Below the pieces are notes generated by a model. That model was not told where the DNA came from and searched no databases. It was given only the letters and a program-made list of their open reading frames with translations. Shown in pieces: positions 9,728 through 32,992 of a DNA stretch of 64,000 nucleotides (positions within the stretch are counted from its first letter, which is position 1; every line of letters starts with the position of its first letter). Both the position numbers and the translations under genes were made by a program. This stretch comes from Spirochaetota bacterium (GTDB lineage: Bacteria > Spirochaetota > UBA6919 > CBDBPB01), in assembly GCA_965208615.1 (NCBI GenBank), contig CBDBPB010000007.1:224001-288000 (forward strand), written 5' to 3'.

Positions 9728-9742
9728 TTTACTTAGTTATTA

Positions 9743-10561
9743 TTAGTCAGAGTAGTGATTAGCAAAGGTTTTTGATTTTCCCCAATATCTTAAGTGCCAA
9801 GGCTCCCAGTCATATCCTTTTGTATTATTTTTAGGGTAGGATATATATATACCATATTTTTTAGCATTAAGTTTAATCCAGTTATGTGTTTTGGTGTTAT
9901 ATAGTTTTTTTGTTAGTCTATATCCCACTTCTGGTGAGGATATATCAGCAGTTGTACCCAGTTGATGTTCTGAGTGGCCTGGTTTTGCACTAGAGCTTTG
10001 CTTTGGATTTCTTTTAACTGCCCTTTTATATAGCCACTCTTGTAAACGTGATGATCTATAGCAGGATACAAGCTTAATTATAATACCTTTTTTACGGGCA
10101 TCATCAATCATAGCTTTAAAGGCATTATATGCTTTTTTACGTAGAAAGGCATTTTTTTTATAGACCATATATCTATTCGGAATGCGGATAAGGTCATTAG
10201 GTTTATATTTTAAGGGAATTGGATTATACTTGTTTATGTGAGCACTACCAATTACTATATTTCTATTTTGATAAATATAGTTATTAGATGGGATATTGCT
10301 AATATATTGAAGGGGTATATAGCGGACTTTCTTTTTATGGATTATTTTAGCAAAGTCGTATGATTTTTTAGTTTTAATAATTTTTATTACCCGTACTACT
10401 GTATTACGATATAAATAGCCATTATGCTTACTTTTGATAGATGGTATATTATAAAGTTTAACTTTATCAACGCATATTATTTTAAGTTTTTCATTAGCAT
10501 TAGCTATCTGGCTTAGCATTAGGATTGGGATAAGGTATAGGGTTAGTTTTTTTAAGATCAA
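9743..10561 (-). CDS. Exported M15B (VanY-like) carboxypeptidase with an N-terminal SH3b-like segment
   Basis: SCYRS, PGHSEHQLGTTAD and EPWHLRY motifs; signal peptide. Probable TTG start at 10561 after AAGGAG. Confidence 0.85.
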   Translation of the reverse strand: MILKKLTLYLIPILMLSQIANANEKLKIICVDKVKLYNIPSIKSKHNGYLYRNTVVRVIKIIKTKKSYDFAKIIHKKKVRYIPLQYISNIPSNNYIYQNRNIVIGSAHINKYNPIPLKYKPNDLIRIPNRYMVYKKNAFLRKKAYNAFKAMIDDARKKGIIIKLVSCYRSSRLQEWLYKRAVKRNPKQSSSAKPGHSEHQLGTTADISSPEVGYRLTKKLYNTKTHNWIKLNAKKYGIYISYPKNNTKGYDWEPWHLRYWGKSKTFANHYSD

Positions 10562-10562
10562 A

Positions 10563-11705
10563 TCATTCTCCTTTTTCAGAAAAAACTTGTACTCCAAAAA
10601 ACTTAAGAGGACCAAATTTATTATATAATACGACTCCTGTTCCTAAATATTTAAGTTTTTTGTTTAGTATATTTCGTCTATGTATGGGGGAGTTCATCCA
10701 CCCATTTAGTGCGGACTTAGCAAATGAGATATATGTATGAGGGGGGATGTTTTTAAATGACCGTACTCTTGTACCGGCTATATATTGTTTACCAAATATC
10801 TGAGTGATATTCTCAGCCGATGAGCTATAATAAGATTTATGTCCAGATAGTCTAATTCTATCCCCTGGAGTTTTTCGACCTTTAACTGGACTATAATGGC
10901 TAAAGAATTTAAGTTTTTTCATATCGTCAGCATGCATCTGTGCGGCTTTTTTTAGATATAGTGAATACATAAAGGGTTTTCTCTTATTTTTAATTCTTCT
11001 AAGGTTAGTTTCGTAGAATATACTAGCTTGCATAAGCTTATAATTAATATTATCGAAGTTTATTTTTTTATTAGGAGGTTTATATTTATAGAACTTTTTA
11101 TAGCTATACTTTTCATACATACTGTCATTCCACACTGTATTAGTGGAATATTTATTTTTAGTTTTATAGGTTAGTTTTTTAACTAGGCTTGTAAAAGGAG
11201 TTTTTTCCCATTTATAGTATCCACTAATTTTGCCTATAATATTAAGTTCCTTATCAATTATGAAAGTTGTGGGTATACCGTTCATGTTAAAAGCTTTGCT
11301 ATATTTATTAGTTACTTTTTTATTATTATCGAGGAGTATGTTAAAATTAAGGTTATTAGATTTTGCAAACTTACTAACTATATTTTTGTTTTCTCCTACG
11401 TTGACTGATAATATTACAAAGTTTTCCTTTTCCATGGACTGATTTAGTTTTTTAATACTGGGCATACTTATTTTACATACAACGCACCAAGTTGCCCAAA
11501 AGTTAAGGAATATTACTTTATTTTTATAATCTGATAGGGATATTGTTTTATCGTTTATATCTTTAAGTTTAAAGTTTATAGCTTTTTTATTAATTATGTC
11601 TATTTTGATAGGCTTATTGGCCCTAACATCGTTTTTATATATTGATAAATAGACGGTTAAAGCAAAAAAGCAAAAGATTATTATATATTTAATTAGTTTT
11701 TTCAT
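10563..11705 (-). CDS. Membrane-anchored TlpA/ResA thioredoxin fused to a CAP (SCP) domain
   Basis: NFWATWCVVC and GIPTTFII in the N-half; AAQMHADDM, FFSH, AENI and WMNSPIHRRNIL in the C-half. ATG at 11705 follows GGAG. Confidence 0.85.
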   Translation of the reverse strand: MKKLIKYIIIFCFFALTVYLSIYKNDVRANKPIKIDIINKKAINFKLKDINDKTISLSDYKNKVIFLNFWATWCVVCKISMPSIKKLNQSMEKENFVILSVNVGENKNIVSKFAKSNNLNFNILLDNNKKVTNKYSKAFNMNGIPTTFIIDKELNIIGKISGYYKWEKTPFTSLVKKLTYKTKNKYSTNTVWNDSMYEKYSYKKFYKYKPPNKKINFDNINYKLMQASIFYETNLRRIKNKRKPFMYSLYLKKAAQMHADDMKKLKFFSHYSPVKGRKTPGDRIRLSGHKSYYSSSAENITQIFGKQYIAGTRVRSFKNIPPHTYISFAKSALNGWMNSPIHRRNILNKKLKYLGTGVVLYNKFGPLKFFGVQVFSEKGE

Positions 11706-12113
11706 TATGTTAAACTCCACAAGGTTAATATACTATTTTAGGTTTAAATAATCTATATAGACTTATTAACAGGCAAACCGATACTTATAAAAGATATTTG
11801 TTTTTTTTTATAGTTTAACCTAATTATTTTGTTATAGTTTAACAATTTAATATAATATAAACATAATGCTTTAAGATGTTAAAAAGAATTATTATTTAAA
11901 GTTGTTTTAAGGAAATGTTCTTAACTTATAGTTTAGTATAATTTTAGGCGGATTAGTTTATGGTTTTATATATTGATTATTGTTTAAATATAGTTATTCA
12001 TATATTGTTTATGTGGTTTAAAATAATTAGTTTTTATTTCCGATGATAATACACTAGTATTTTTATTTTATAGTGCATTTAATTATTGCTTTACTTAAGG
12101 ATAAGGGGGATAT

Positions 12114-12851
12114 ATGAAAAGGATTTTATTAATATGTTTTATTTTTGTGATAGCCACTTCGCTTTTTTCGTTGGACTACTACACCAACAGGGATAAAAAG
12201 GATAAGGCTAAGGTTAATATATATTCTCCCAAAAAAGAGAGTGCTAAAGATGGCTGGGAGTTTATTGGGGATAAGGATAATATAAATCCTTATAGAGCCT
12301 ATTGGAGGCTTAAGATTGATGCTAAGGAGCTTCCTTATAAATATATTGAAAAGGCTATTACTGATGATTTTACTATAAAAAATGCTGAGGTTAAGTTTAG
12401 TCTTAAGGATGAGGGGGATTATAATTTTGCTAGTGTTATATCTAAGGTTAGTGTTAGGGTTTTTCCAAGGCCTACTGGCGATTATTACGAATATAGTATT
12501 AGTGGTAGGCTTGTTGTAGAGGGTAAGGATTATGGTATAGTTAGTGGCAAGGCTAAGGGAAAGCGTATTAACAACAGGCTAAACTTTAGTATATTTAGTG
12601 AAGTTAAGAATAATGATATTAGGCTTGGCAGTTTTAGTGGCTCACTTACCCTTGGATTGGATAATGGCGATTTTAAGGATGGACTATTTACATTTTTTGC
12701 AAGGCTAAAGATAGATAAGCGTTGGACTTATGCTAGAATTAGAGGGCGGATAGCTGGTAATATTAATGATGCAAGGATTATTAAGTCTAGTATTATAGAC
12801 GTGGATGGAAGGCTTATTGGTGATATAGATGTTAAGTTTAAGCTTGACTAA
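12114..12851 (+). CDS. Exported beta-rich hypothetical protein
   Basis: 245-aa ORF with RBS (aggggga) and signal peptide MKRILLICFIFVIATSLFS. Confidence 0.7.
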   Translation: MKRILLICFIFVIATSLFSLDYYTNRDKKDKAKVNIYSPKKESAKDGWEFIGDKDNINPYRAYWRLKIDAKELPYKYIEKAITDDFTIKNAEVKFSLKDEGDYNFASVISKVSVRVFPRPTGDYYEYSISGRLVVEGKDYGIVSGKAKGKRINNRLNFSIFSEVKNNDIRLGSFSGSLTLGLDNGDFKDGLFTFFARLKIDKRWTYARIRGRIAGNINDARIIKSSIIDVDGRLIGDIDVKFKLD

Positions 12852-12863
12852 CTTGAGTATTAT

Positions 12864-13619
12864 ATGTTAGTTAGAAAATTGACTATTGTAAGTAATATTT
12901 TGATTAAGGCTCGTTTTTATAAGTTAACATTGTTGTCTGATGCAGATTATTATCCAGGTCAGTTCATACATATAAGGGTTAGTGATAGTATTGATCCTTT
13001 TCTAAGGCGTCCTTTTAGTATATATAGGCTTAATAATGATCACATAGAGGTTTTGTATGAGGTTGTTGGAAAAGGAACTTTAGCATTATCCAAGAGAAAG
13101 GACGGCGAGCTATTGGATGTAGTTGGGCCTTTGGGTAATAGTTTTACTTATGATATAGGTAATTATTATCCCTTATTAGTTGGTGGGGGAATAGGGGTTG
13201 CACCTTTATTCTTTTTAGCAGAGACTTTAGTTAACAAGGGTCATAATCCTAAGGTGATACTTGGTTATCGGAGTTATGATGAAATTATAGCCCTGGATGA
13301 TTTTATTAGTATAGGTTTAGATCCAGTGGTGGTTACTGATGACGGGTCTTACGGCTGTAAGGGCTTTGTAAGCGATTTTATAGAGGATTATCTAAATAAT
13401 AGCACTATGATATTTACTTGTGGACCTTTGCCTATGTTGAGTGTGGTATCTAAGATTGCTTATGATAGTGCCATTGCTTGTGAGCTATCCCTGCATAGCT
13501 TTATGGGATGTGGTTTTGGGGTTTGTTTGGGATGTGTTATAGAGTCGCCTGATGGCTATAAGCGTATATGTAAGGATGGCCCTATATTCACTTCCGATCA
13601 GGTAGTTATTGGGGTATAG
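12864..13619 (+). CDS. pyrK: Dihydroorotate dehydrogenase electron transfer subunit
   Basis: PGQF, LRRPFS, GGGIGVAP, CGPLPML and the 2Fe-2S motif MGCGFGVCLGC...CKDGPIF. Confidence 0.88.
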   Translation: MLVRKLTIVSNILIKARFYKLTLLSDADYYPGQFIHIRVSDSIDPFLRRPFSIYRLNNDHIEVLYEVVGKGTLALSKRKDGELLDVVGPLGNSFTYDIGNYYPLLVGGGIGVAPLFFLAETLVNKGHNPKVILGYRSYDEIIALDDFISIGLDPVVVTDDGSYGCKGFVSDFIEDYLNNSTMIFTCGPLPMLSVVSKIAYDSAIACELSLHSFMGCGFGVCLGCVIESPDGYKRICKDGPIFTSDQVVIGV

Positions 13620-14711
13620 ATGCGTCCTACCTTGTTAGAAGTTAATATTACTGCTCTTAAAAAGAACTTAAATCTTGTTAGGACAATCACTAATAACAAA
13701 GAGATAATAGCTGTAATCAAGGCTAATGCTTATGGACTGGGTAGTGTGGCTGTAGCTAAGGCGTTATTAGAGAGTGGGCTGTCCACATTTGCGGTAGCTA
13801 TTTTGGATGAGGCTGTCATATTACGAGAGGGTGGGATAAGTAATAATATAATTCAGCTTTGTCCTTTTAGCGAATGTGAGATACCTGATATTATTAACTA
13901 CTCGGTTACCAGTACCATAGTGGATTATAAAAGGGCTAAGGCATTAAATGACTATGCACATAGCCGTAATATAGTGTTAGCTGTTCATATAAAGGTTGAC
14001 TCTGGTATGGGTCGTCTTGGTGTTAGGGCTGATGGGGCTTTTGAGCTTATTAAAAGGGTATATAATTTAACTAATCTTAGGGTTGAAGGTATATTCACTC
14101 ACTTTTCTAGTGCGGATATACCCGATATAGATTATACTAACTATCAGATTAAGGTTTTTTCTAATCTGGTTAATCGTTGTAGGGATATAGATTTTAGGGT
14201 TATTTATCATTTAGCTAATTCTGGTGCTATTATATTTTTCTCAAATAGTTATTTTGATGCGGTTAGACCCGGACTTATGCTTTATGGATGTTATCCTTCT
14301 TTAAAAAGCGAGTCTAGCATTAGTTTAAATAAGGTTCTAACTCTTAAAACTAAGATAGTATCGGTAAAGGAGCTTTTGGCTGGAGAGAGTGTTAGTTACG
14401 GACGTACTTTTAGGGCAAAGTCTAAAATGACTTATGGTGTTTTACCTATTGGCTATGCTGATGGATACTCTACTTTGCTGTCTAACAAGGGCAGGGCTAT
14501 GGTTAACGGTGTTTATGTACCTGTGATAGGCAGGGTTTGTATGGATTATACTATGGTTGATCTTAGAAAAGTTAATGCTAAAGAGGGGGATGAGGCTATT
14601 TTAATTGGCGATGGTATAACCGAAGAGGAGATTGCACATAAAACCGGGCTAATACCTTATGAGGTTATAACTGGCATTACTGAGCGTGTTCCGAGGGTAT
14701 ACAGGTCATAA
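13620..14711 (+). CDS. alr: Alanine racemase
   Basis: AVIKANAYGLG (PLP lysine), HIKVDSGMGRLG, GYADG and GRVCMD. Confidence 0.96.
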   Translation: MRPTLLEVNITALKKNLNLVRTITNNKEIIAVIKANAYGLGSVAVAKALLESGLSTFAVAILDEAVILREGGISNNIIQLCPFSECEIPDIINYSVTSTIVDYKRAKALNDYAHSRNIVLAVHIKVDSGMGRLGVRADGAFELIKRVYNLTNLRVEGIFTHFSSADIPDIDYTNYQIKVFSNLVNRCRDIDFRVIYHLANSGAIIFFSNSYFDAVRPGLMLYGCYPSLKSESSISLNKVLTLKTKIVSVKELLAGESVSYGRTFRAKSKMTYGVLPIGYADGYSTLLSNKGRAMVNGVYVPVIGRVCMDYTMVDLRKVNAKEGDEAILIGDGITEEEIAHKTGLIPYEVITGITERVPRVYRS

Positions 14712-16520: not shown

Positions 16521-16955
16521 ATGCAAGAAGTTAGTAATGGTGATACTGTTCAGGTACACTACACAGGCAAGTTGGATGATGGTAAGGTATTTGATTCATC
16601 GGCTGATAGAGACCCACTGGAGTTTAAGGTTGGGGATCATCAGGTTATAAAGGGTTTTGAAGAGGGCGTTATTGGCATGAAGGCTGGGGATAAAAAAGAG
16701 ATTACTATTCCTCCTGATAAGGGCTATGGTAATAGAACTGATGATAATATACACGAGATCAGCTCTCAGAACATATCATCACCTAAGGATTCTGAATTTA
16801 AGGTTGGTATGCCTATAAGCCTAAAAAACGAAAAAGGTGAGGAGTTTTATGGTATAGTCCAAGAGGTTAAGGATAAGGCTATAGTTATTGATTTTAATCA
16901 CTTTTTAGCTGGTAAGAATTTAACTTTTGATGTTGAGTTAATGGCTATAAAATAG
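16521..16955 (+). CDS. FKBP-type peptidyl-prolyl isomerase (SlyD/SlpA-like, no His-rich tail)
   Basis: VHYTGKLDDGKVFDSS and DFNHFLAGKNLTFDVEL; ATG at 16521 follows AGGAG. Confidence 0.92.
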   Translation: MQEVSNGDTVQVHYTGKLDDGKVFDSSADRDPLEFKVGDHQVIKGFEEGVIGMKAGDKKEITIPPDKGYGNRTDDNIHEISSQNISSPKDSEFKVGMPISLKNEKGEEFYGIVQEVKDKAIVIDFNHFLAGKNLTFDVELMAIK

Positions 16956-16985
16956 GTTTATTTTGGATTATTTATTTTAGGGCTG

Positions 16986-18014
16986 TCATTGAGTTTGCTT
17001 ATATTTAATTTCTTTTAGAGCGTTTATTAGAAGGCTTATGGAGAGTTCATCCTTAACAGCTAACCTTATCCACTTTGAGTTTAGGGGGTAAAAGTTATCA
17101 CAAACCCTTATAAGTATTTTATATGGGGTTAATAGCTTTTGGAGTTTGTATCCGTCTATATTTTTCAATTTGACTAGGATAAAGTTAGCACAGGAGTTAA
17201 AGATTTTATCAAAGAGGTCTATTTTTATTAATTTTTGTTTTAGGATATGTTTATTTAATTTAGTTAGTTTTTTTGTTTGGTTTAAAAAGTCTTTATTTTT
17301 GATAGCTTGGTTTAGGTAGTGCATATCTAGTGAGGATAACTTCCACGGTGGTTCTGTTTTTCGTATTTCTTTTATGTTATTTTTGCTTGATATAACACAT
17401 CCTATTCTTAGCCCAGCACAGGCAAATATCTTACTAAAAGATTTTAATATAAACATATTATCATTTACTAAGGGTAGAGCGGACTCATAATCGGTAAAGT
17501 CTAAGAAGGACTCATCCAGTAATATATTGGCATTTTTTGTTTTCCATTCTGATAAAAATGTTTTTATATTGTATAGTTGTCCATCTGGTGTGGATGGGTT
17601 AACAAAGACCACAAGAGAGTTTTTAGTTATATTTTTGTTTATGTTATCCAGGCGATTAATTTTGTTTATTTTGCAGTTTAGGTTATTGGCTATTTTCATA
17701 TATTCCGTATAGATGGGTAGATATAGGCTAACGTTTTTGGGGTTTATGTATTTAAATATAGAATATATACCAGAGCTTGCCCCGTTATAGAACTCTATAT
17801 CGCAATGACTGGGCAGATTAAAGAACTTGGATACATTAATTTTTAGTTCTTTATAGTTTGGCTCTGCATAGGCTGATAGGTTAAGGTTTTTCATATTCAT
17901 ATTGACGTTTGGGCTTATAAAGTTAACGTTGGACGAAAAGTCTATAATATCTTTTATGGGTGAGTTTATCTTATTGGCAAATGAGTATATATTTCCACCG
18001 TGATCGTAGTTCAA
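16986..18014 (-). CDS. cobD: L-threonine-O-3-phosphate decarboxylase (PLP, class I/II aminotransferase fold)
   Basis: HGGN...IIDFSSNVN N-terminus, NPSTPDG, DESFLDF, SFSKIFACAGLRIG and IRVCDNF; lies in a cobalamin gene context. Confidence 0.82.
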   Translation of the reverse strand: MNYDHGGNIYSFANKINSPIKDIIDFSSNVNFISPNVNMNMKNLNLSAYAEPNYKELKINVSKFFNLPSHCDIEFYNGASSGIYSIFKYINPKNVSLYLPIYTEYMKIANNLNCKINKINRLDNINKNITKNSLVVFVNPSTPDGQLYNIKTFLSEWKTKNANILLDESFLDFTDYESALPLVNDNMFILKSFSKIFACAGLRIGCVISSKNNIKEIRKTEPPWKLSSLDMHYLNQAIKNKDFLNQTKKLTKLNKHILKQKLIKIDLFDKIFNSCANFILVKLKNIDGYKLQKLLTPYKILIRVCDNFYPLNSKWIRLAVKDELSISLLINALKEIKYKQTQ

Positions 18015-18053
18015 GACAATATCCTTAACATAAAATAATATTTAGGGGATTCT

Positions 18054-19115
18054 ATGATAGATAATATCAAAATAATACAAGGTAGCCAAGACTTCTTAAG
18101 AAAAATAAAGAATACGAGTTTTCAGTTTTTTTTAATAAGTGCCTATACAAAGACGGCTGAGATAGATAATATAACATCAGCAGGACTAGCAGGACTAGTA
18201 GAGTATACCCCGCCTTTGGATATGGAGGTATTGTATTATGGTAGGCCATTGTCCATGCCTGATATACCTAAGATGCCGTCTGGACCGCCATCTCCTGTGA
18301 TAATAACCTCTGCCATTAAGCAGTTAGTGGACTTTCCAATAAGCTATATAGATGTTGGACTTAAAATTAGACCTAAATGTCCTATAACTGTTATTCAGTC
18401 AAAGGTTGCTAAGTCTATTTTGGAGGGTTCTGATATTGACGCACAGGAGCTGTTCAACGATGGATTACGCTATGCTAGTGAGGTAAAGGATTATGCCCAT
18501 ACATTTATACTCTCAGAGTGCGTTCCATCGGGCACTACCACTGCCTATGCTGTGAGTAAGGCTTTGGGCTATTCATGTGATGACTCTTTTTCGTCGAGCA
18601 ATAGTGATGAAAAGACCAAATCCTTAAAAAGGGATGTTGTTAATAAGGCTATATCTTTGTTTGGTAAAGATGTTAAGACTGTTTTTGATGCCATAAGGTA
18701 TTTGGGTGATCCTATGCAGGCATTTTTATCTGGTATGGCTGTTGGACTTAATCAGCTTGGTAAGATGGTTATATTAGGCGGTGGGACTCAGATGCTAACC
18801 ATATACTCAATTTTAAAGAAGCTGGATAAGCCTATAGACTTTACTAATATTGCCTTAATGACAACCAAATGGGTGGCTGAGGATAAATATAGTGATATGA
18901 AGGGTTTATTAAGCCGTATAGATAAAGATTTAAACGCTTTTTATGCAGATTTTGACTTTAAGGAGTCCAAGTTTAAAAACCTTAATCTATATGATAACGG
19001 ATATGTAAAAGAGGGTGTGGGAGCTGGTTCTATAATATGTTATGCTTATTTAAAGGGTATATCTAAAAAGGCAATACTAAACCAAATAGAAAAGCTTTAT
19101 AAGCAGGTAAAATAA
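18054..19115 (+). CDS. cobT: Archaeal/cyanobacterial-type nicotinate-nucleotide phosphoribosyltransferase CobT
   Basis: ITSAG, PSPVIIT, ECVPSGTTTA, GDPMQ, LGGGTQM and VKEGVGAG motifs. Confidence 0.88.
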   Translation: MIDNIKIIQGSQDFLRKIKNTSFQFFLISAYTKTAEIDNITSAGLAGLVEYTPPLDMEVLYYGRPLSMPDIPKMPSGPPSPVIITSAIKQLVDFPISYIDVGLKIRPKCPITVIQSKVAKSILEGSDIDAQELFNDGLRYASEVKDYAHTFILSECVPSGTTTAYAVSKALGYSCDDSFSSSNSDEKTKSLKRDVVNKAISLFGKDVKTVFDAIRYLGDPMQAFLSGMAVGLNQLGKMVILGGGTQMLTIYSILKKLDKPIDFTNIALMTTKWVAEDKYSDMKGLLSRIDKDLNAFYADFDFKESKFKNLNLYDNGYVKEGVGAGSIICYAYLKGISKKAILNQIEKLYKQVK

Positions 19116-19987
19116 TTTAGACTGCTTATTGAGTGGAACTTCTTTATATATTCTTCGATATCGTTTTGTGATAGGTTAGTTTGTTTTTTAACTTTTTTCA
19201 TATATATGCGTTGAGAGCCGTAGTATAGGCAGGCAAAACGCATCCACTCTAATAGTACGTCTAGGGATATAACCATTGACGATTTACTATTATAGGTATT
19301 AATAAGCTTATCCAAAAGATTTTTATTTAGGCTACCATCCAAAAAGCACCAGTTTATGCCTATTACTGCTATATCAAAGTATAGGTCTCCATGACAAAAG
19401 TCACTAAAGTCAAATACCCTTAAGCCGTTTTTGTTAAATCTTACGTTATCCATAAATAAATCACCGTGTATAAGTACATTAGCTTTGGCTATTAGGTTTA
19501 AGCTGTCAATATGTTTTAGCATAGAGTTATAGCCTGACTCACGCAAATAATACTCAATACGCTTAGTGGTATAGATATTGTCTATTTTTTTGTTATAGTT
19601 TATGGAGTGGAGTTTAACTAAGAATAGTGCAATTTGTTTAATATTATTTTTATTAGGTTTATCTATTGTTCTACCCTCCATATAAGAGAATAGAACAGAG
19701 GGTTTATTATCCAAATGGATAAGCTCTTTACCGTTATACCCTATAACATGGGGGACATTAAGTTTTTTTAGTTTTAATAGTTTTAGTAGGTCTATCTCGT
19801 TGTTGACCTTTTTACTAGAGCTATATTCATATATTTTTAATATATAGTTTTTATTATCAGTTTTTATTAGATATGTGTTATTAGATATGCCGTTTTTGGT
19901 GGGGTATATATAGTTAGCGTTTAGGTTATAATATTCTTTTATTTTAAGTTTAATATAGTCGGTTTTGAGTTTAGTTATAATCCCCAA
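19097..19987 (-). CDS. APH-superfamily kinase (type II homoserine kinase-like)
   Basis: GISNNTY, YILKIYE, IHGDLFMDN and FDF motifs; TTG start after TAAGGA. Confidence 0.8.
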   Translation of the reverse strand: MGIITKLKTDYIKLKIKEYYNLNANYIYPTKNGISNNTYLIKTDNKNYILKIYEYSSSKKVNNEIDLLKLLKLKKLNVPHVIGYNGKELIHLDNKPSVLFSYMEGRTIDKPNKNNIKQIALFLVKLHSINYNKKIDNIYTTKRIEYYLRESGYNSMLKHIDSLNLIAKANVLIHGDLFMDNVRFNKNGLRVFDFSDFCHGDLYFDIAVIGINWCFLDGSLNKNLLDKLINTYNSKSSMVISLDVLLEWMRFACLYYGSQRIYMKKVKKQTNLSQNDIEEYIKKFHSISSLNYFTCL

Positions 19988-19997
19988 GGTTTTATCC

Positions 19998-20705
19998 TTA
20001 GTCTATGATTTTCTTTTTTGAGAAGTCTATTATGAATGACATATACTTATTCCAGTTTTGGGGTAGGTCTTTTGATATGTTTTCATTTTTAAAGCCGAGG
20101 TTCTCTATGTATGATAAATCACCAACTGGGGTGTAATTAGATAGTGCATCACCGACTTTAGGTTTCATAATGACTTTTGTAATATGGTTTGGATTATTAT
20201 TCCATGGCCTAATCTCTAATGAGGACATCCCTTGGCATAAAGACTTCTTCATTTTGGCTGAGGCATAAGAAAATGACGTTATACCAGGGATAACTAATGT
20301 ATTACTATATAGTTCTGGATCAACATCTTTTAGGTATTCTAATAAATAATATACTCTGCTAAATATTGCAGAATCACCTAAGGTTACGTAGGCGAGGCAC
20401 TCATAACGTAAAAAGCCTGTTAATAGTTCATTAAGTTGAGCCTTCCACAGGGATTTATCATATTTCATGGGGGATGGTATACCCTTTAGGATAGGGAAGT
20501 CAGTCTTTTTTATTAATATATCATTATTATCAAAAAACATAGTTTTTATGGACATTATAATCTTATATGCCCTTGAGTCTTTTATGTTATCTCTAACGGG
20601 TATGTATATGGCCTCTGAGGCTAATAAATATTTAATTGCCTTCCAAGTTAATAGTTCAGGATCACCAGGTCCTAAGGATATTATATATAGTTTTTTTTTT
20701 GTCAT
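19998..20705 (-). CDS. cbiL: (Cobalt-)precorrin-2 C20-methyltransferase
   Basis: SLGPGDPELLTWKA, YVTLGDSAIFS and VIPGITSF. Confidence 0.85.
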   Translation of the reverse strand: MTKKKLYIISLGPGDPELLTWKAIKYLLASEAIYIPVRDNIKDSRAYKIIMSIKTMFFDNNDILIKKTDFPILKGIPSPMKYDKSLWKAQLNELLTGFLRYECLAYVTLGDSAIFSRVYYLLEYLKDVDPELYSNTLVIPGITSFSYASAKMKKSLCQGMSSLEIRPWNNNPNHITKVIMKPKVGDALSNYTPVGDLSYIENLGFKNENISKDLPQNWNKYMSFIIDFSKKKIID

Positions 20706-20707
20706 GT

Positions 20708-21541
20708 TTATAGTGTTCCCATTTTTATTTTAAGTTCATCTATAAGGTTTTTTATGGTTTCTTTGACGATATCCAAGTCTAACAGGTTAAAGGGACAGTT
20801 ATCCACTTCGGCTATTAATACGTTAAAGTTTTTGGATAGGCTGTTTTCAATCTTTTTGACGTCTTTGATAAAGTGATTACCGCTTGTGAGTAATAACGGC
20901 ACTATTTTTATGGATAGCTTTTTCTTATGTACTGACTCAGCTCTTTTTACGGAGTCTATAATGGAGTCTTTTAACAAGCTAAAGTTATATATCTTTTCTA
21001 GTGAGCTAAAGAGGTTAAGTGGATTAAGTGTTGTTAAAAAGTCTTTTGCGTAGAAAACTGATTGGATACCAGATTGCTCAAAATATGGTGCACCGTGGAC
21101 TAAATATAATATTACGTCATTATAGTTTTTCCGTACATATTGGTTAATATGGTATAATATACGGCTTGTCTCATCTCCTCTTGATAAGATTGCTGGACTA
21201 AAGCGTATATCGGCTGGTGAGAATATATTAAAACCCTTAACGGTATTTTTTATTAACTCGTGTTCGTCAGTGGGGAATAGGTTTATGGAGGATGCTATTA
21301 TACGTTTATATCCTTGAAGTTCTACATCAGAGAGGGTTTGGCTTAGGTTTTTATATATAATACCTTTAGTTTTCAGGTTATTTAACACCGACCTCGACGA
21401 AAATGCCAAATGTACTGGTATATTAGTATTATTATTTTCTATATATTCTTTTAGGCTTTCGTATTTAGCCTTTTGAGGTATTGATCCAAAGGCAGATAAT
21501 ATAATTGCCGTATCTTTTTTATAATGTCTCCATCTTTTCAT
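20708..21541 (-). CDS. cbiK: Sirohydrochlorin cobaltochelatase (CbiK type)
   Basis: LSAFGS, LAFSSRSV, and the two catalytic-type His residues in LVHG and SGNHFIKD. Probable start is MKRWRH at 21541. Confidence 0.8.
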   Translation of the reverse strand: MKRWRHYKKDTAIILSAFGSIPQKAKYESLKEYIENNNTNIPVHLAFSSRSVLNNLKTKGIIYKNLSQTLSDVELQGYKRIIASSINLFPTDEHELIKNTVKGFNIFSPADIRFSPAILSRGDETSRILYHINQYVRKNYNDVILYLVHGAPYFEQSGIQSVFYAKDFLTTLNPLNLFSSLEKIYNFSLLKDSIIDSVKRAESVHKKKLSIKIVPLLLTSGNHFIKDVKKIENSLSKNFNVLIAEVDNCPFNLLDLDIVKETIKNLIDELKIKMGTL

Positions 21542-21616
21542 ATTGTCTATTCTTATTTTGTGAGTATAGGTTTGTACCCACCAATAGATAGGTACAAACA
21601 AAAACTATAATATATT

Positions 21617-22300
21617 TTATATAGAATCTGGACTATAGAGTCTTTTTTCAACGAATAGGCTGTCTTTTAAAGGGTTTAAGGTTTTTGCAAGGGCTAAAAC
21701 TCCTAAGTCTAAAAGTGGTTCTATTAGTATAACAGCTAGATATACGCTTCCAAAGGATAATACCTGAGCAGTATTGGCTATAGTAAAGCCTTGACCATAG
21801 AATGCCCAAAACATTACCCAAGCAACTATACCACCTTGATAAGCTATAGATAGTTTTAATACCTGTGAATATTTAAGATCTTTATAGGCTATGTTTTTGG
21901 GGATAACTTTTTTGGCTAATAGGTTCATTACAAAGAGCGGCATTAATAGCGTTGTTATATTGACAAAATACATTGCTAGATCAGTTTGTGAGAACAGGAC
22001 TCCCTGACATAACAGTCCAATAGCTAAGCCCAGTGAGGCGGCTGATACACCAAATAATAAGAATAACGTTGAGCCGAATATAAAGTGTACCTCTGACACG
22101 CCAACAGGAAAGTGTGGGAATACTTGAAAGAAAATAAATACTAATATACTAGTTAATATGGTTTTTAGCCCTAAGGATAAATAACCAGTCTTTTTAATTT
22201 CATTAACGGTTAGTTTTGCGGTAATAGCCAAAGACGTTATTGCTGTACCATAGCTTAATGCTAATTTAGCTCCTTGAACAACTCCTGGTTCAATGTGCAT
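21617..22300 (-). CDS. cbiM: ECF cobalt transporter S component CbiM
   Basis: MHIEPG metal-binding N-terminus, GVSEVHFIFG and multiple TM helices; has its own RBS (AAGGAG). Confidence 0.9.
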   Translation of the reverse strand: MHIEPGVVQGAKLALSYGTAITSLAITAKLTVNEIKKTGYLSLGLKTILTSILVFIFFQVFPHFPVGVSEVHFIFGSTLFLLFGVSAASLGLAIGLLCQGVLFSQTDLAMYFVNITTLLMPLFVMNLLAKKVIPKNIAYKDLKYSQVLKLSIAYQGGIVAWVMFWAFYGQGFTIANTAQVLSFGSVYLAVILIEPLLDLGVLALAKTLNPLKDSLFVEKRLYSPDSI

Positions 22301-22333
22301 AATAAACTCCTTTATAAAAGTTTTATTAAAGTA

Positions 22334-22390
22334 TTAAGGAAGTCTGACAAAGCTTTTGTATAGGTTATTAATTTGATAAGGTTTTGTCAT
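22334..22390 (-). CDS. Putative 18-aa leader peptide MTKPYQINNLYKSFVRLP
   Basis: Perfect AAGGAGG (22398-22404) 7 nt before the ATG at 22390; TAA at 22336-22334; ends 33 nt before the cbiM ATG. Confidence 0.55.
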   Translation of the reverse strand: MTKPYQINNLYKSFVRLP

Positions 22391-22397
22391 AATAGTA

Positions 22398-22508
22398 CCT
22401 CCTTTTACGGGAAAGAGATCTCTACTTAAGTATAATATACTGTGTTCCTGACTCTAACAGTTACCCGATAGTGGAGGATTCTCACCTCACTTCCACAATG
22501 TATTATAT
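22398..22508 (-). ncRNA. Compact (class II / AdoCbl-variant-like) cobalamin riboswitch
   Basis: The minus strand reads UGUGGAAGU-GAGG-UGAGAAU-CCUC-CACUAUCGGGUAACUGUUAGAGUCAGGAACACA, followed by hairpin CUCUUU-CCCGUAA-AAGGAG. Loop CGGG/CCCG kissing complementarity; sits upstream of cbiM. Confidence 0.85.
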
Positions 22509-22613
22509 TAAACAGGTTAGAATAGCAAATATATTATAAAAATATATAAAAGACAATATTTATTAAGTTTTTTTATTAATATTACTTTTAGCGAATATGT
22601 TAAATAGGCAATT

Positions 22614-23930
22614 ATGATAAAAGGTTTTATTATATCCGCAATATCGTCCAAACAGGGAAAGACACTAATAACCATGTCTTTGATGAATAAGCTAAATGCT
22701 CAATTTAAGGTATCCCCGTTTAAAAGTGGACCTGATCATATAGATACCCAATTTCATAAAAAGCTTTTGGATAAGCCATCGGTCAATCTTGATTTATTTA
22801 TGATGACTAAAACCCAGACTAAGTGGATATTTAACAACTACGCAAAAGAACTATCCATAATAGAAGGGGCTATGGGCTATTACGACGGCATAGATAAAAA
22901 AACATCCACTTATGATATTGCTAATACCATAAATCTACCCACTGTATTAGTTATATCGGCTGAGGGGTCTTATTCAACGTTATCCGCTGTGATATTGGGT
23001 ATGCTAAGCTATAAAACGGATAATACAATAAAAGGTATTATATTTAATCATGTATCCTCAGAAAGCCATTATCAACTAATAGTTAAGCAGGTTAATAAGG
23101 ATCACCCTAATATTGAGTGTCTTGGATGGGTTAAAAAGGATATAATTAATCTTAAATCGAGGCACCTTGGTTTGGACTTATCCCAATTAAACAGGCTTAA
23201 GCTTTGTGAGATGTCAGATGAGGTTTGTAAGAATATTAATATTCAAAAGCTAATTAGACTTATAAATGATAATAAGCTTACTAGAACTAATATTGACTAT
23301 CCCTTTGATAATACAAGCCTAAAAGAAAAACAGCTAACCATAATAAGTGATAGTGGTTTTTCCTTTTTGTACCACGATAATATGGAATATTTAAAAGGCA
23401 TATTTAAAAATGTTAATATAATATCCGCTCTTGATGATAATATTATACCAAAGGATAGCGATGTTGTATACATCCCTGGTGGATACGTTGAAACAGAGGA
23501 TGTATATCATAAGTTAGCTAAGGCCAATAAGTTTAAAAATAGTCTAATTGATATTTCTAGTGATAAAAAGAAAAGAGTATATGCAGAGTGCGCTGGACTA
23601 ATATATTTGGGTAATAGGTTAACGTTGTTATCCGAGGTTAGTGTTAGTATGTCTGGTATTATGCCTATGAGCTTTAGGATGAGGGTTAATAGACAGCGTC
23701 TTGGATATTATTATGCAAAAGACTTAAAGTTTAATAATATATATAAGGGACATGCTTTTCACTATAGTGAGCCTATTAGTGAGGCTAACCCAATATGGGG
23801 CTTGTCAAAGAGTATAGACTCAAAAGCTATAATGGGAGCATGGATAAGTCAAAATGTATGTGGAACGTATTTACATACTATGTTTAGGGCTAACCCTAAG
23901 ATTATAGACTTGTATTTTAATACGAATTAA
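22614..23930 (+). CDS. cbiA: Cobyrinate a,c-diamide synthase
   Basis: QGKT P-loop, FKSGPDHID, IEGAMGYYDG, SRHLGL, and glutaminase motifs YAECAG and GHAFHYS. Confidence 0.92.
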   Translation: MIKGFIISAISSKQGKTLITMSLMNKLNAQFKVSPFKSGPDHIDTQFHKKLLDKPSVNLDLFMMTKTQTKWIFNNYAKELSIIEGAMGYYDGIDKKTSTYDIANTINLPTVLVISAEGSYSTLSAVILGMLSYKTDNTIKGIIFNHVSSESHYQLIVKQVNKDHPNIECLGWVKKDIINLKSRHLGLDLSQLNRLKLCEMSDEVCKNINIQKLIRLINDNKLTRTNIDYPFDNTSLKEKQLTIISDSGFSFLYHDNMEYLKGIFKNVNIISALDDNIIPKDSDVVYIPGGYVETEDVYHKLAKANKFKNSLIDISSDKKKRVYAECAGLIYLGNRLTLLSEVSVSMSGIMPMSFRMRVNRQRLGYYYAKDLKFNNIYKGHAFHYSEPISEANPIWGLSKSIDSKAIMGAWISQNVCGTYLHTMFRANPKIIDLYFNTN

Positions 23931-23945
23931 TTATTTGGTGGACAA

Positions 23946-24632
23946 ATGAAGATAAAAAACTTTTATATTAAAAAGCCGTTAATCATTAATGCCGGTGATA
24001 TTGAAAAGCTATCCCTTAAGGCGGTTGAAGATAAGTGTATTAGTTTTAAACGGTTTAATGGTTTTGACAAAATGCAAAAAGAAGTTGTTAAACGGCTAAT
24101 ACATAGTACAACTTGCTTTGATAGGGTTATTAACAATATATACTTTACTGATAATGCTATAACCAGTATTATAGGGCATATTAAGGACTCAGCCAGTATA
24201 ATTGTTGATACTAATATGATTAAATCTGGTCTTAGTAGTTATTATACGGATAAATATAATAATGAGGTTATATGTCATGTATCCGATGATGACATAAAGG
24301 CTGAGGCAGGCCAAAAGGGTCTAACTAGGAGCTATTTAGCTGTACAGAAAGCTCTTAAGGATAATTATAATAAAAAGGTGATATTAGCTTGCGGTAATGC
24401 ACCGACTTTTTTATACTCAGCTGTTGAGGCTTTACTAAAAAACGATTGGGATTTATCCAAAGTAATTATATTGGCTTTCCCGGTGGGCTTTGTTAATGTG
24501 GTAGAGAGCAAAGAGTATACTAAAGACTTTTTAAGTTATTTTAATATGGATGGTATTATATTAGAGGGTAGTTTTGGCTCATCCCCGTTGGTGATTGCCT
24601 GTTTGCATGCCGTATATAGACAGATAGCTTAA
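23946..24632 (+). CDS. cbiC: (Cobalt-)precorrin-8 methylmutase
   Basis: RLIHST, GNAPTFL, PVGFVNVVESKE and GSS motifs. Confidence 0.9.
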   Translation: MKIKNFYIKKPLIINAGDIEKLSLKAVEDKCISFKRFNGFDKMQKEVVKRLIHSTTCFDRVINNIYFTDNAITSIIGHIKDSASIIVDTNMIKSGLSSYYTDKYNNEVICHVSDDDIKAEAGQKGLTRSYLAVQKALKDNYNKKVILACGNAPTFLYSAVEALLKNDWDLSKVIILAFPVGFVNVVESKEYTKDFLSYFNMDGIILEGSFGSSPLVIACLHAVYRQIA

Positions 24633-25592
24633 CTATATTAGGTTAAAGAGCTTTTTTATTTTATTATTTTTTATTAGGTCATTTAGCTTTTCAACCATGA
24701 TAAGATAGTCATCCATGTTTTTTATTTTGACATATACATTTATACTTTCGTCTTCTAGGTGTTTATCTATTTTAATTTTAAATCTTGGAGGCAGGGATAA
24801 ATCTTTTATATGTTCTTTAATTTTGTTTATTTCTTTGGTATACAGCGGATAACGCATAATAGACAGCTTATCAAAAAAGGCTTTCTGACGGATATTAACA
24901 CTTTGTGAGTCAAATATAATACTGGATAAGCTATCTAGAACATCATAAGGTATTTTGTTATCCCGTTTGGATAGGTATTTTATATTATCCATCATGAGCC
25001 TAACCTTGCTGTTGGACAAGTTAAGCTCGTTTATAATTGTGTAGATGTAGTCCTGTTCTTTGATAGAGAAACAACTAAACTCATAAGCCAGACTAAGGGG
25101 GATATTATAATTTAGCAAATAAGTTTTTATATTAGCCGATAAGTTATTTAGGCTTAGGAACAGCTTTAGCAACTTGATACTGGGGTTTTCCTTTATGAGA
25201 GGGAGGTATACATTTACTATTTCTTCCTGGCTGAGCTTAAATGTATTAGTAAGTTTATTTAGGATATTATATTTTTCAATAACGTTAAGCCTTGCATAAA
25301 GTTGACCGTATAAGACAGCGTATACAAAGCAGTCCAGCATAGAGCTACCGTCTAATATGAAGGAGTCTGCGTATAGGACTTTATTATTTTTGAGAGCTTG
25401 TATTTGTTCACTACCCCAAACCAGCCTATAGCTATTTAATTTTATTCTCTCCAGCAAAATGGGAGTATAAAGTTTATGATGGTTAAACTCCAAAACACTA
25501 TTCTTATTGGAAAACGAATATAGGTATAGATCATTTTTTATGTTGATATTCTTGATTAGGATTTTATCAAATATTTTATTAATCATAAGCAC
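24633..25592 (-). CDS. Degenerate ParB/Spo0J-like domain protein
   Basis: PILL...YRLVWG and LNVIEK resemble the ParB N-domain and following helix; the Arg-rich GxxRxxA box is not intact. Confidence 0.45.
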   Translation of the reverse strand: MLMINKIFDKILIKNINIKNDLYLYSFSNKNSVLEFNHHKLYTPILLERIKLNSYRLVWGSEQIQALKNNKVLYADSFILDGSSMLDCFVYAVLYGQLYARLNVIEKYNILNKLTNTFKLSQEEIVNVYLPLIKENPSIKLLKLFLSLNNLSANIKTYLLNYNIPLSLAYEFSCFSIKEQDYIYTIINELNLSNSKVRLMMDNIKYLSKRDNKIPYDVLDSLSSIIFDSQSVNIRQKAFFDKLSIMRYPLYTKEINKIKEHIKDLSLPPRFKIKIDKHLEDESINVYVKIKNMDDYLIMVEKLNDLIKNNKIKKLFNLI

Positions 25593-25691
25593 TCCGACGA
25601 TAACTAATATTTTGATAGAATAACAATAATTTTGATATTTTAAACTATTTTGTTATTTTTTTATAATTCCACACCATATCATGGGGATATA

Positions 25692-26300
25692 ATGCATAAC
25701 TTACTGCTTTTTAATAAGATAGCCCTTATATTGTATAGTAGTTATAGGGCTATTATAGTTGTTATACTTTTGGTTATTAGCCAGTGTAGTCTTTATAATC
25801 TTGCTACTGAGGAAGATGGATTTAACGAAAATGATAGGCCTAATATAAATGAGGGTATAGCTGTTTTCATTTTTAGGAGTGCTAATAAGGCACCTTTACC
25901 TAGTGAGGTATTCTTTCGACTAAGAAAGCAAAATGACAAAAATTATCATTTTGTTTTATCAGCTTTTATACCTAGAAAAGAGGTCAGTCGTTATATCTTT
26001 TTAAGAAAGGGTATTTATTCCTTTGCTAAAATGGTATACAAGTTTAACGGCCATACAGAGGACTTTTATTTTCCTAGTAATACATTTCATATTAGCTCAT
26101 CCCACATAAACTATATTGGGGATATTATTTTTGAATACAATAGAGGTAAAGTTAGTGTAAGGCTAAGGGATAACATGAATAAGAGTATGTATGACTTTTA
26201 TAAAAGGTATAAACAAATAACTTTGATGTATCCCAAGCGGAAGAGTCTTCTTATGCTGTTTAGCCTTGATAAGCAGTTAAAGAATCTTTATAAAAGATAG
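25692..26300 (+). CDS. Hypothetical exported protein/lipoprotein
   Basis: Hydrophobic stretch ending ISQC; INYIGDI motif. The ATG at 25692 follows ggggat. Confidence 0.6.
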   Translation: MHNLLLFNKIALILYSSYRAIIVVILLVISQCSLYNLATEEDGFNENDRPNINEGIAVFIFRSANKAPLPSEVFFRLRKQNDKNYHFVLSAFIPRKEVSRYIFLRKGIYSFAKMVYKFNGHTEDFYFPSNTFHISSSHINYIGDIIFEYNRGKVSVRLRDNMNKSMYDFYKRYKQITLMYPKRKSLLMLFSLDKQLKNLYKR

Positions 26301-26306
26301 ATTTTA

Positions 26307-27161
26307 TTAATATGGTTTTATACTTTCGGCCAAAAAGAAGTTATAATTAAGATGATCTAGTTTATTTTTAGCCTTTTTTGCAAGAGTCATTGACTCAAAA
26401 AGTCCAAATACAGATGATCCGCTACCAGACATTAGACTAGCCTTTGCACCATTTTTAGTTAACATAGTTTTAATTTCTTTTATAGTCGGATTAAGTTTAA
26501 TTTGGCTTTCTTCGAACTTGTTATACATAGAGTTAGCGATTTTATCCATGTCTTTTTGCTTAAGAGCGTCTATAATATCGTTTATTTTGTTTTTAGGGCT
26601 GGATAAGTCTATATTATCATAAGCCGTTTTGGTGGACGTATTAATTTTTGGATATACAACTAAAAAAAACAAAGGACAATTCAAATTATCGAGGTATGTT
26701 AGCTTATCACCAATGCCCTGTCCTCTTGCAGTAGCACCTTTTATAAAGAATGGCACATCCGCACCGATTTTACTTGCCATTTTAGTTAGCTGATCATTAG
26801 TTATCCCTAAGCTAAAAAAGTTATTTATTCCGATAAGGGTAGTAGCCGCATTAGAGCTTCCACCAGCGAGTCCCGCACCCATTGGGATTACTTTTTTAAG
26901 GGTTATTTTAAGTCCGCTATTAAGAGGGTGGATATAGGGTCTTAATAGGTTAATAGCTTTCCAGATAACGTTAGTATTGGATTCGAGTTCTTTAATATTG
27001 CTAACAATAGTAAAGTCGGAGCTTTTTTCAAATGTTATACTATCACAAAGGCTTATAGCCTGAAAAATGGTATCTATATTATGATAGCCATCATCCCTAA
27101 GGCTTATTATGTCTAAGTATAGGTTTATCTTGCAATAAGACTTTAATATCACTAATACCAA
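26307..27161 (-). CDS. ispE: 4-diphosphocytidyl-2-C-methyl-D-erythritol kinase
   Basis: KINLYLDI...DGYH, IPMGAGLAGGSSNAA, GADVPFF and MSGSGS. Confidence 0.96.
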   Translation of the reverse strand: MVLVILKSYCKINLYLDIISLRDDGYHNIDTIFQAISLCDSITFEKSSDFTIVSNIKELESNTNVIWKAINLLRPYIHPLNSGLKITLKKVIPMGAGLAGGSSNAATTLIGINNFFSLGITNDQLTKMASKIGADVPFFIKGATARGQGIGDKLTYLDNLNCPLFFLVVYPKINTSTKTAYDNIDLSSPKNKINDIIDALKQKDMDKIANSMYNKFEESQIKLNPTIKEIKTMLTKNGAKASLMSGSGSSVFGLFESMTLAKKAKNKLDHLNYNFFLAESIKPY

Positions 27162-31611: not shown

Positions 31612-31614
31612 GGC

Positions 31615-32607: not shown

Positions 32608-32617
32608 AATTATTAAC

Positions 32618-32992
32618 TTATTGTATTATTAGTTCGAAATACTTTTCACCACTTGCTGTTCCACTAATTGTAACTTTTGCTCTATATATACCTGGACTTG
32701 GTAATATACCACTATTATTAAGCCCAGACCACTTTAAATTTATTGTATTACCAGAGTTGGGATAATCTTTTGTTCTTGTCCATACTATTTGATTTCTTTG
32801 ATCTTTAACCTCTATTTTTAGAGTAAAATCATCAGTTATACTATTATTTAGAGTTAATCTAAAAGTACCCTCTCCATTAGGTATGTTATAGGGATTGGGA
32901 TAAATATAAAAGTCACTAATTATATTATCATCATCCGTACAAGCAAATGTAAGAGTTAATAATGTTATTAGTATTAGTTTTAATATTTTCAT
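32618..32992 (-). CDS. Small lipoprotein with a FlgD-Ig / T9SS-CTD-like domain
   Basis: Lipobox TFAC; YIYPNPY...WSG.N..G...PGIY pattern. Confidence 0.7.
   Translation of the reverse strand: MKILKLILITLLTLTFACTDDDNIISDFYIYPNPYNIPNGEGTFRLTLNNSITDDFTLKIEVKDQRNQIVWTRTKDYPNSGNTINLKWSGLNNSGILPSPGIYRAKVTISGTASGEKYFELIIQ

Follow-up and report, generated by a model that had tools for sequence, protein, structure and literature searches.

A cobalamin biosynthesis (cob) operon led by a riboswitch lies on the minus strand of the DNA examined here, a stretch of 64,000 nt from a Spirochaetota bacterium (contig CBDBPB010000007.1, C7:224001-288000 in our contig numbering) that we call the window. The fourth gene behind the AdoCbl-II aptamer, in the order cbiM-cbiK-cbiL-kinase, encodes an uncharacterised kinase of the aminoglycoside phosphotransferase (APH) fold. 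We propose that this protein is probably an L-threonine kinase of a fold different from the known ones, feeding the decarboxylase CobD whose gene follows on the same strand. The features concerned are collected in Table 1.

Table 1. Features of the cob locus in the window (positions counted from the first nucleotide of the window).
Feature	Coordinates	Strand	Remarks
cobD, L-threonine-O-3-phosphate decarboxylase, presumed user of the kinase product	16986..18014	-	TIGR01140 206 bits
Archaeal-type CobT-like gene, convergent	18054..19115	+	NF003372 346 bits (cut-off 306); TIGR00303 274.3 bits (cut-off 240)
APH-fold kinase gene	19097..19987	-	296 aa, TTG start; proposed L-threonine kinase
cbiL, cobalt-factor II / precorrin-2 C20-methyltransferase	19998..20705	-	TP_methylase 63 bits; TIGR01467 95.1 bits, best match, under cut-off 163.25
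cbiK-like sirohydrochlorin cobaltochelatase	20708..21601	-	PF06180 57.5 bits
cbiM-like cobalt transporter component, operon gene 1	21617..22300	-	PF01891 54.5 bits; NCBIfam CbiM models 24-31 bits, under cut-offs
AdoCbl-II (cobalamin) riboswitch aptamer, operon head	22433..22510	-	RF01689 42.1 bits, gathering score 36.5, E 1e-06, model 1-81 (full)
cbiA/cobB cobyrinic acid a,c-diamide synthase, divergent from the riboswitch operon	22614..23930	+	NF002204 314.2 bits (cut-off 254)
cbiC precorrin-8X methylmutase	23946..24632	+	Pfam CbiC 150.1 bits

The stop codon of cbiL (TAA, 20000-19998) is followed by a 10-nt spacer (ggataaaacc) and the TTG start of the kinase at 19987, and an AGGA-like site upstream of this TTG straddles the cbiL stop. 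The initial annotation of this DNA had placed the kinase 10 nt behind cbiL, as the last gene of a riboswitch-led operon with cobD as the next gene on its strand, and all three statements hold on the minus strand; it did not mention the convergent CobT-like gene that separates the kinase from cobD and shares its last 19 nt with the 3' end of the kinase gene (19097-19115). Read-through from either of these two genes would yield antisense RNA. The plus-strand frame across the kinase gene is riddled with stops. As the gaps between the listed starts and stops are only 2-15 nt, we infer that cbiM, cbiK, cbiL and the kinase share one transcript. An aptamer above its gathering score, cob genes on the same strand and short gaps together identify a riboswitch-controlled cob operon. 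No Rfam match besides RF01689 was found at gathering level across the window, and promoter and terminator consensus scans of 16800-22700 gave 27 and 4 sites, respectively, against 29.9 and 3.2 expected, which is chance level. Among sequencing runs, none of RNA is listed as holding this DNA, and one DNA run has 0.61 of the words.

The kinase matches the Pfam family APH (PF01636) over residues 31-215 with 88.6 bits (gathering score 23.2, E 6.9e-25). A full HMMER scan of 1.84 billion representative proteins recovered 1396 relatives at E<=1e-3, 244 at E<=1e-10 and nine at E<=1e-30, the closest non-self relative being 38% identical; a word-indexed single-protein search had returned nothing but the kinase itself and one weak match. 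Every one of 40 aligned close relatives has G33, K51, H127, I173, H174, D176, F178, D180, N181, D193 and Y232. The HxDxxxxN loop, the Mg-binding Asp and the beta3 Lys/alphaC Glu pair that characterise APH kinases are all present, the catalytic loop reading IHGDLFxDN. Because the ATP-binding Lys (K51), the catalytic loop and the metal-binding DF motif are invariant, the protein looks like an active kinase. An AlphaFold2 model built from the alignment of 40 relatives has a mean predicted local distance difference test score (pLDDT) of 93.5 and a predicted template modelling score (pTM) of 0.90. The top Foldseek match of this model is the homoserine kinase of Agrobacterium, 2ppq (TM score 0.81, 22% identity), followed by the small-molecule kinases APH(2''), YihE, N-acetylhexosamine kinase and the choline kinase LicA; there are at least 500 matches at E<=0.001, and APH-family kinases appear throughout among the matches listed. 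All the above indicate, from the predicted structure and conserved residues, that the protein uses ATP to phosphorylate a small molecule and has the APH fold (aminoglycoside phosphotransferase / eukaryotic-like kinase).

The nearest relatives by sequence as well as by fold are the type II homoserine kinases (ThrB2), represented by 2ppq, which scores 116 bits in a PDB sequence search with the family profile, the runner-up scoring 43 bits. The substrate of ThrB2, homoserine, is an isomer of threonine. ThrB2 models are also the best NCBIfam matches of the kinase, and records at JGI label some of its relatives 'homoserine kinase type II'. On these grounds the protein could be an extra or specialised homoserine kinase serving to raise the threonine supply, or a paralog that rides in the operon without a role in cobamide synthesis. 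The two ThrB2 models, however, give scores below half of their curated cut-offs (NF003558, 113.4 bits, cut-off 271; TIGR00938, 92.5 bits, cut-off 255.9). When the 149 best relatives were scanned against NCBIfam at E<=1e-55, 39 exceeded the NF003558 cut-off, seven came near it and 103 had no homoserine-kinase match at that level; none was found in the 56 best relatives (P0003-P0058). A FastTree phylogeny of 160 rows, from which hits shorter than 230 aa had been left out beforehand, split with a support of 99 into 67 rows, with all 39 ThrB2 and the seven near the cut-off, and 93 rows, with the window protein, all 16 cob-linked rows and not a single ThrB2. In an IQ-TREE analysis of 67 chosen rows under LG+C20, 20 ThrB2 fell on one side of a branch with a Shimodaira-Hasegawa-like approximate likelihood ratio (SH-aLRT) of 99, and the smallest node to hold all 16 cob-linked rows comprised 37 rows, no ThrB2 among them, with a support of 98. 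Both trees are unrooted.

The active-site residues divide along the same line. ThrB2 and the kinase clade have in common the IHxDLFxDN and DF motifs, H127, Y232 and R260. At the beta3 position, K51 is found in 93 of 93 members of the kinase clade as against T in 38 of 39 ThrB2, and the alphaC Glu (E64), kept in 89% of the clade, is replaced by Tyr or Phe in ThrB2. Alignment columns 85, 291, 365, 371, 385 and 336 carry T (38/39), P (39/39), R (37/39), E (39/39), R (38/39) and D (33/39) in ThrB2; the kinase clade has there K, N or variable, a gap or variable, variable, Y or F, and S. The clade is also shorter by about 44 residues, with a median length of 271 aa versus 315 aa. Cut-off score, clade placement, family-invariant residues and the role of homoserine kinase in the genome all speak against ThrB2 membership. 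Judged from sequence comparison, the kinase lies outside the type II homoserine kinases, in an unnamed sister clade of them. We considered K51 as a marker of cob-linked members and rejected it, as seven loci outside Campylobacterota have K at this position without any cob gene nearby. A third group, comprising relatives at 21 loci (L027, L030-L033, L036, L037 and others, from metagenome-assembled genomes of Binataceae and 'delta proteobacteria') has Arg at beta3 together with the alphaC Glu; it shows no cob neighbours and lacks the ThrB2 signature.

The host genome (2.46 Mb, nine contigs, 99.4% complete) already possesses a homoserine kinase. A canonical thrB of the GHMP family is present on contig C1 (TIGR00191, 268.6 bits, cut-off 168.25), thrC is on C2 and hom on C8, so the housekeeping threonine pathway is complete away from the window. 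Considering the separate thrB, the lost ThrB2-invariant residues, the clade placement and the linkage to cob genes described below, we regard a homoserine kinase or a passenger paralog as very improbable. The genome contains only two GHMP kinases, ThrB and IspE (window 26307-27161, TIGR00154 218 bits), and therefore no PduX-like gene. The Cys-rich domain PF04071, which we take to be that of the bifunctional Methanosarcina CobD, was found at genome level in none of five genomes, the window's (G000) and G055 included, four of the five being kinase carriers. The other APH-family genes of the host are an AmgK-like kinase and a protein without NCBIfam match. CbiB, CobU, CbiP, CobD, CobS and the CobT-like gene make up its late cob set, and the cell must therefore make aminopropanol phosphate.

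We screened 80 related loci by BLAST, within 6 kb around the kinase, against a panel of cob proteins from a Halarcobacter operon (L007) and the window. The best 20 of the 80, at 28-40% identity, all come from Campylobacterota. At least one cob gene was found at 23 of the 27 Campylobacterota loci versus none of the 53 other loci, which are made up of 25 ThrB2-type loci (T at position 51), 21 Binatia or deltaproteobacterial loci (R) and seven with K. The ThrB2-type loci, unlike the kinase clade, are thus not cob-linked in any of 25 cases. The immediate next open reading frame (ORF) is cobD at nine of the 27 loci, and 4-nt overlaps are frequent. Pfam annotation of 146 ORFs at 13 Campylobacterota loci placed the kinase within a cob operon at 12, with cbiB, a CobD-type aminotransferase, cobU, cobS, cobQ, a CobC-type phosphatase, a nitroreductase-family gene and btuBFCD as partners; an archaeal-type CobT-like gene is also among them. 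The CobD-type aminotransferases tested in these loci have TIGR01140 as top match (212-234 bits). The association with cobD and cbiB is the one expected of L-threonine kinases, and homology to PduX or BluE is lacking, the fold being APH. At ten loci (L007, L012, L014-L016, L018, L021-L024) the neighbour of a nitroreductase-family gene is the archaeal-type CobT-like gene (TIGR00303/NF003372) and not the bacterial DBI_PRT CobT.

The closest relatives in the phylum of the window tie the kinase to CobD still more directly. Among 41 genomes sampled from this lineage, the kinase occurs, beyond the window's own genome, in just two, both of the same order. One (G001) has the order cbiL-kinase-cobD-cobQ with 3 nt between kinase and cobD. 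The other (G002) has a single ORF of 634 aa with the kinase at residues 1-276 and CobD at residues 300-630 (TIGR01140, 219 bits). A second kinase-CobD fusion of 637 aa (P0004) was found in the representative library, and because the two fusions are sisters in the FastTree phylogeny, they probably stem from one fusion event. A search with the family alignment for longer fused relatives found none; it also missed the known 637-aa fusion and is uninformative.

A kinase for some other hydroxyl of the late pathway has to be considered here, acting either on free (R)-1-amino-2-propanol, in a salvage route parallel to CobD, or on (adenosyl)cobinamide. The APH fold acts on many small alcohols, as the choline, hexosamine and antibiotic kinases in the Foldseek list illustrate, an APH-fold aminopropanol kinase exists in mycobacteria, and the cob-operon context would suit any late-pathway kinase. 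Yet a protein with cobinamide kinase activity, CobU, is encoded in the genome of the window and in the majority of linked operons. The pairing is specific to CobD, by adjacency, by 4-nt overlaps and by two fusions in which an N-terminal kinase precedes a C-terminal decarboxylase in reaction order. The nearest relatives use an L-amino acid, homoserine, and no aminopropanol kinase is among the PDB sequence matches at E<=1e-5. We therefore consider such a kinase unlikely. A role as 4-hydroxythreonine or antibiotic kinase was set aside, since neither accounts for the linkage and fusion to CobD.

The distribution of the kinase was compared with that of CbiB in an even sample of 201 genomes from the phylum Campylobacterota. 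The kinase is present in 14 (all at 146 bits or more) and CbiB in 15; 13 genomes have both, one the kinase only, two CbiB only and 185 neither, counts that come from kin genomes and not from independent events, so that they are descriptive. In 11 of the 13 joint holders, kinase and CbiB are less than 10 kb apart on the same contig. The kinase-only genome (G056) has kinase and cobD overlapping by 4 nt beside cbiM, cbiK, cbiA, bluB and cbiC. Exactly two GHMP matches each were found in five kinase-bearing Campylobacterota genomes and in G001 and G002. The top-scoring Campylobacterota kinase match (312.6 bits, G197:C1:1157423-1158205) has one in-frame TGA, which could mark a pseudogene, a sequencing error or a recoded codon.

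One of the two genomes with CbiB only (G115) bears on a further possibility, namely that the protein is an L-serine kinase, or a dual threonine/serine kinase, which would give phosphoserine to a CobD-type decarboxylase and lead through ethanolamine phosphate to norcobamides. The cluster of G115 runs CbiB, a CobD-like protein of 392 aa, CobU, CbiP, CobT, a small Cys-rich protein, CobS and CobC, and its CobD-like protein is nearly identical (878.7 bits) to PDB 6oux, a 'threonine phosphate decarboxylase-like enzyme'. The Sulfurospirillum pathway of the 6oux type is said, after Keller et al., to use phosphoserine, and phosphoserine is an ordinary intermediate of serine synthesis that cells already make. 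A dedicated kinase would then be needless, and G115 serves as a natural control in which a pathway that needs no threonine phosphate is also without the kinase; it is the sole 6oux-type genome in the sample. Its genes follow the order of the Sulfurospirillum norcobamide cluster, and the part of the published cluster table cited here has no kinase either (PMC7755780).

The CobD of the window points in the same direction, being nearer to the L-threonine-O-3-phosphate decarboxylase of Salmonella (1lc5, 96.8 bits) than to 6oux of Sulfurospirillum (49.3 bits). BluB is frequent beside the kinase, identified at L007 by 210.8 bits on the NCBIfam model for this dimethylbenzimidazole synthase and elsewhere by BLAST likeness and the nitroreductase Pfam family, which argues for ordinary cobalamin. 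On the other hand, the sequence of the APH pocket gives no readout of threonine versus serine, norcobamide synthesis does occur in Campylobacterota, the phylum with most homologs, and all the linkage evidence is compatible with a serine kinase to an equal degree. Weighing these points, we hold a serine or dual kinase to be improbable, about on a par with the aminopropanol or cobinamide kinase. The initial annotation had likewise read the gene as filling a missing kinase step, for threonine or, as an aside, for serine in norcobamide formation. The threonine branch of that reading is supported, and the serine branch is the less likely one. Its further points were also borne out: no thrA or thrC is located near the operon, the genome has a separate thrB and no PduX-type kinase, the protein falls beside the type II homoserine kinases and not among them, and its homologs show strong linkage to cob genes, above all to cobD.

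Both kinase-less Campylobacterota cob clusters carry a small Cys-rich protein. In G115 (L092, G115:C1:1317000-1331000, ORFs 6902-13664) it is a PF04071 protein of 92 aa (95.9 bits) between cobS and cobT, the latter encoding the usual bacterial DBI_PRT CobT (374 bits). In G055 (L091, G055:C1:76000-90000) a 147-aa ORF at 9726-10169, just upstream of cobD, has a weak PF04071 match of 16.8 bits, under the cut-off. Possibly the APH kinase excludes a Cys-rich CobD partner and vice versa.

Several observations weigh against the assignment as L-threonine kinase. In the window itself cobD is not adjacent to the kinase, with the convergent gene in between. The second CbiB-only genome, G055, has CobD-CbiP-CbiB-CobT without the kinase and just two GHMP matches; therefore at least one further route to the product exists. 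At three of the loci without cob genes (L008, L011 and L020) the sequence is cut less than 350 bp from the kinase on one side, but the clade member L009 (G044) has no cob gene within 8 kb on each side, and its genome offers just a HisC-like match and a weak CbiB-like match of 62.6 bits. The kinase gene of L009 (8001-8885) is located between those of DNA polymerase III alpha and a class A penicillin-binding protein; it may be a remnant or a clade member with another role, and it also favours, as far as it goes, the passenger paralog considered above. The CobD genes score 185-234 bits on TIGR01140, all under the curated cut-off of 290.55, and owe their identity to best match and context; for the CobD of the window, a protein of 342 aa with an aminotransferase domain only in Pfam, TIGR01140 comes first and hisC second at 142 bits. 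In the phylum of the window, eight of the 11 CbiB-bearing genomes sampled are without the kinase. The kinase role of every clade member is predicted from sequence and context, and the present tests separate L-threonine neither from L-serine nor from another small hydroxyl compound of the pathway.

The eight kinase-less, CbiB-bearing relatives have two to four GHMP matches each, with at least three in six of them. Only in G010 does a GHMP match share a contig with cbiB; it is 11 kb away, and the intervening ORFs match no cob reference protein. Compared with the Halarcobacter operon, the identity of the window's proteins is 56% for CbiP, 53% for CbiB, 48% for CobU, 47% for CobD, 40% for the CobT-like protein and 37% for the kinase. 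Such likeness to a Campylobacterota operon, together with the lack of the kinase in most CbiB-bearing genomes sampled in the window's own phylum, suggests that the kinase-CobD module may have moved horizontally.

We thus infer L-threonine as the substrate and L-threonine-O-3-phosphate as the product, and a possible course of events is as follows. When adenosylcobalamin is scarce, the riboswitch would permit readout of the operon, and adenosylcobalamin would shut down synthesis of the kinase. The kinase, with ATP-Mg held by K51/E64 and D193 and with D176 as the catalytic base, would phosphorylate the beta-hydroxyl of free L-threonine to give L-threonine-O-3-phosphate. CobD would decarboxylate this compound to (R)-1-amino-2-propanol O-2-phosphate, which CbiB would attach to adenosylcobyric acid. 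H127, Y232 and R260 may hold the alpha-amino-acid end common to threonine and homoserine, and the residues that differ from ThrB2 may set the reach to the hydroxyl. The kinase would thereby be a non-orthologous replacement for the GHMP-type PduX and BluE.

PduX is a GHMP-fold kinase and BluE a GHMP kinase. PduX of Salmonella enterica (EC 2.7.1.177) carries out the same reaction as proposed here, making L-threonine-O-3-phosphate for CobD, and is likewise encoded with B12-related genes. The two proteins differ in fold, GHMP versus APH, without any sequence relationship, and the activity of PduX is experimental whereas that of the kinase is predicted. BluE, the L-threonine kinase of Rhodobacter, has the same role as that proposed but belongs to a different family and to different taxa; Tavares and colleagues are said to have reported in 2018 that it is confined to some Rhodobacterales, and the kinase clade is found in Campylobacterota and the window's order. 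The bifunctional CobD of Methanosarcina mazei combines kinase and decarboxylase in one polypeptide, as the 634- and 637-aa fusions would. The archaeal bifunctional CobD reportedly, again from the 2018 work of Tavares, carries a Cys-rich metal-binding extension and no APH domain; the plain CobD of the window lacks the Cys-rich PF04071 domain of the M. mazei type.

A review of 2020, in the part cited, names only PduX and BluE as suppliers of threonine phosphate (PMC7242693). BluE with CobC can stand in for PduX with CobD in engineered E. coli, as stated in the section cited (PMC6249242), and the L-threonine kinase step therefore tolerates replacement by other proteins. From gene context, and with no pduX present, CbiU of Dehalobacter restrictus has been proposed as the missing L-threonine kinase; in the portion cited, it resembles a homoserine kinase of the type TIGR02535, archaeal and phosphoglycerate-mutase-like (PMC4285132). 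It differs in fold and family from the APH kinase and is likewise a candidate only. Shelton et al. did not use pduX in their prediction rules, since, as the passage cited explains, most producers verified by experiment lack the gene (PMC6461909). In the full-text literature, with most subscription journals and supplements outside its coverage, we found no APH-type L-threonine kinase and no cobamide role for the clade. In public records the members of the clade are named 'phosphotransferase', 'hypothetical protein' or 'homoserine kinase type II', and the holders recorded include Arcobacter sp. LA11, Arcobacter nitrofigilis and Sulfuricurvum kujiense. What we predict is that a different, uncharacterised protein family carries out a reaction and pathway step already known.

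Some further features of the window deserve mention. The cbiM-like gene is solitary, without adjoining cbiN, cbiQ or cbiO, and a solitary cbiM-like gene, 52% identical, is also found in a Campylobacterota cob cluster (L093, 3352-4041). The real start of cbiK may be an internal ATG about 60 nt downstream of the listed one. An ATG-initiated frame of 18 codons (22333-22389, minus strand) lies between the aptamer and cbiM and may be a leader peptide or a piece of the expression platform. The divergent starts of the CobT-like gene and cobD are just 39 nt apart (18015-18053), with scant room for two promoters. Right after cbiC, the ORFs 24633-25592 (minus strand, 319 aa) and 25650-26300 (plus strand, 216 aa) have no Pfam or NCBIfam match. 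CdaA diadenylate cyclase is encoded at 29790-30686. Weak matches to type IX secretion components at 30718-32992 (PorV/PorQ 57.6 bits, PorU 35 bits, all under cut-offs) adjoin a ComEC-like gene of the metallo-beta-lactamase fold.

The kinase is a candidate with a testable activity for a known gap in cobamide synthesis, in Campylobacterota and at least one other order. Members of the Campylobacterota oxidise sulfur and abound at vents, in sediments and in groundwater. If the assignment is true, the database names of the clade would be corrected and genome-based prediction of the B12 makers in a community would be sharpened. A compact kinase, or a natural kinase-decarboxylase fusion, may be of use in engineered B12 production, where the PduX/BluE step needed optimising according to the section cited (PMC6249242). 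For enzyme evolution, the clade would be a case of a new substrate specificity arising beside homoserine kinase, and its clade-specific residues are listed above for mutagenesis. Taken jointly, an independent origin of L-threonine kinase activity within the APH fold, a mobile CobD-linked 'linker module' and a prediction of the linker form a picture that we offer only tentatively, as we think it rather doubtful that all three parts hold. If it is true, each of the three homoserine kinase folds would have spawned a B12 threonine kinase, the GHMP fold PduX and BluE, the phosphoglycerate-mutase-like fold the candidate CbiU, and the APH fold the clade described here. Kinase and CobD would then travel as a two-gene, sometimes fused, module across distant bacterial lineages, and the presence or absence of the kinase would predict whether the linker is aminopropanol, as in a cobamide, or ethanolamine, as in a norcobamide.

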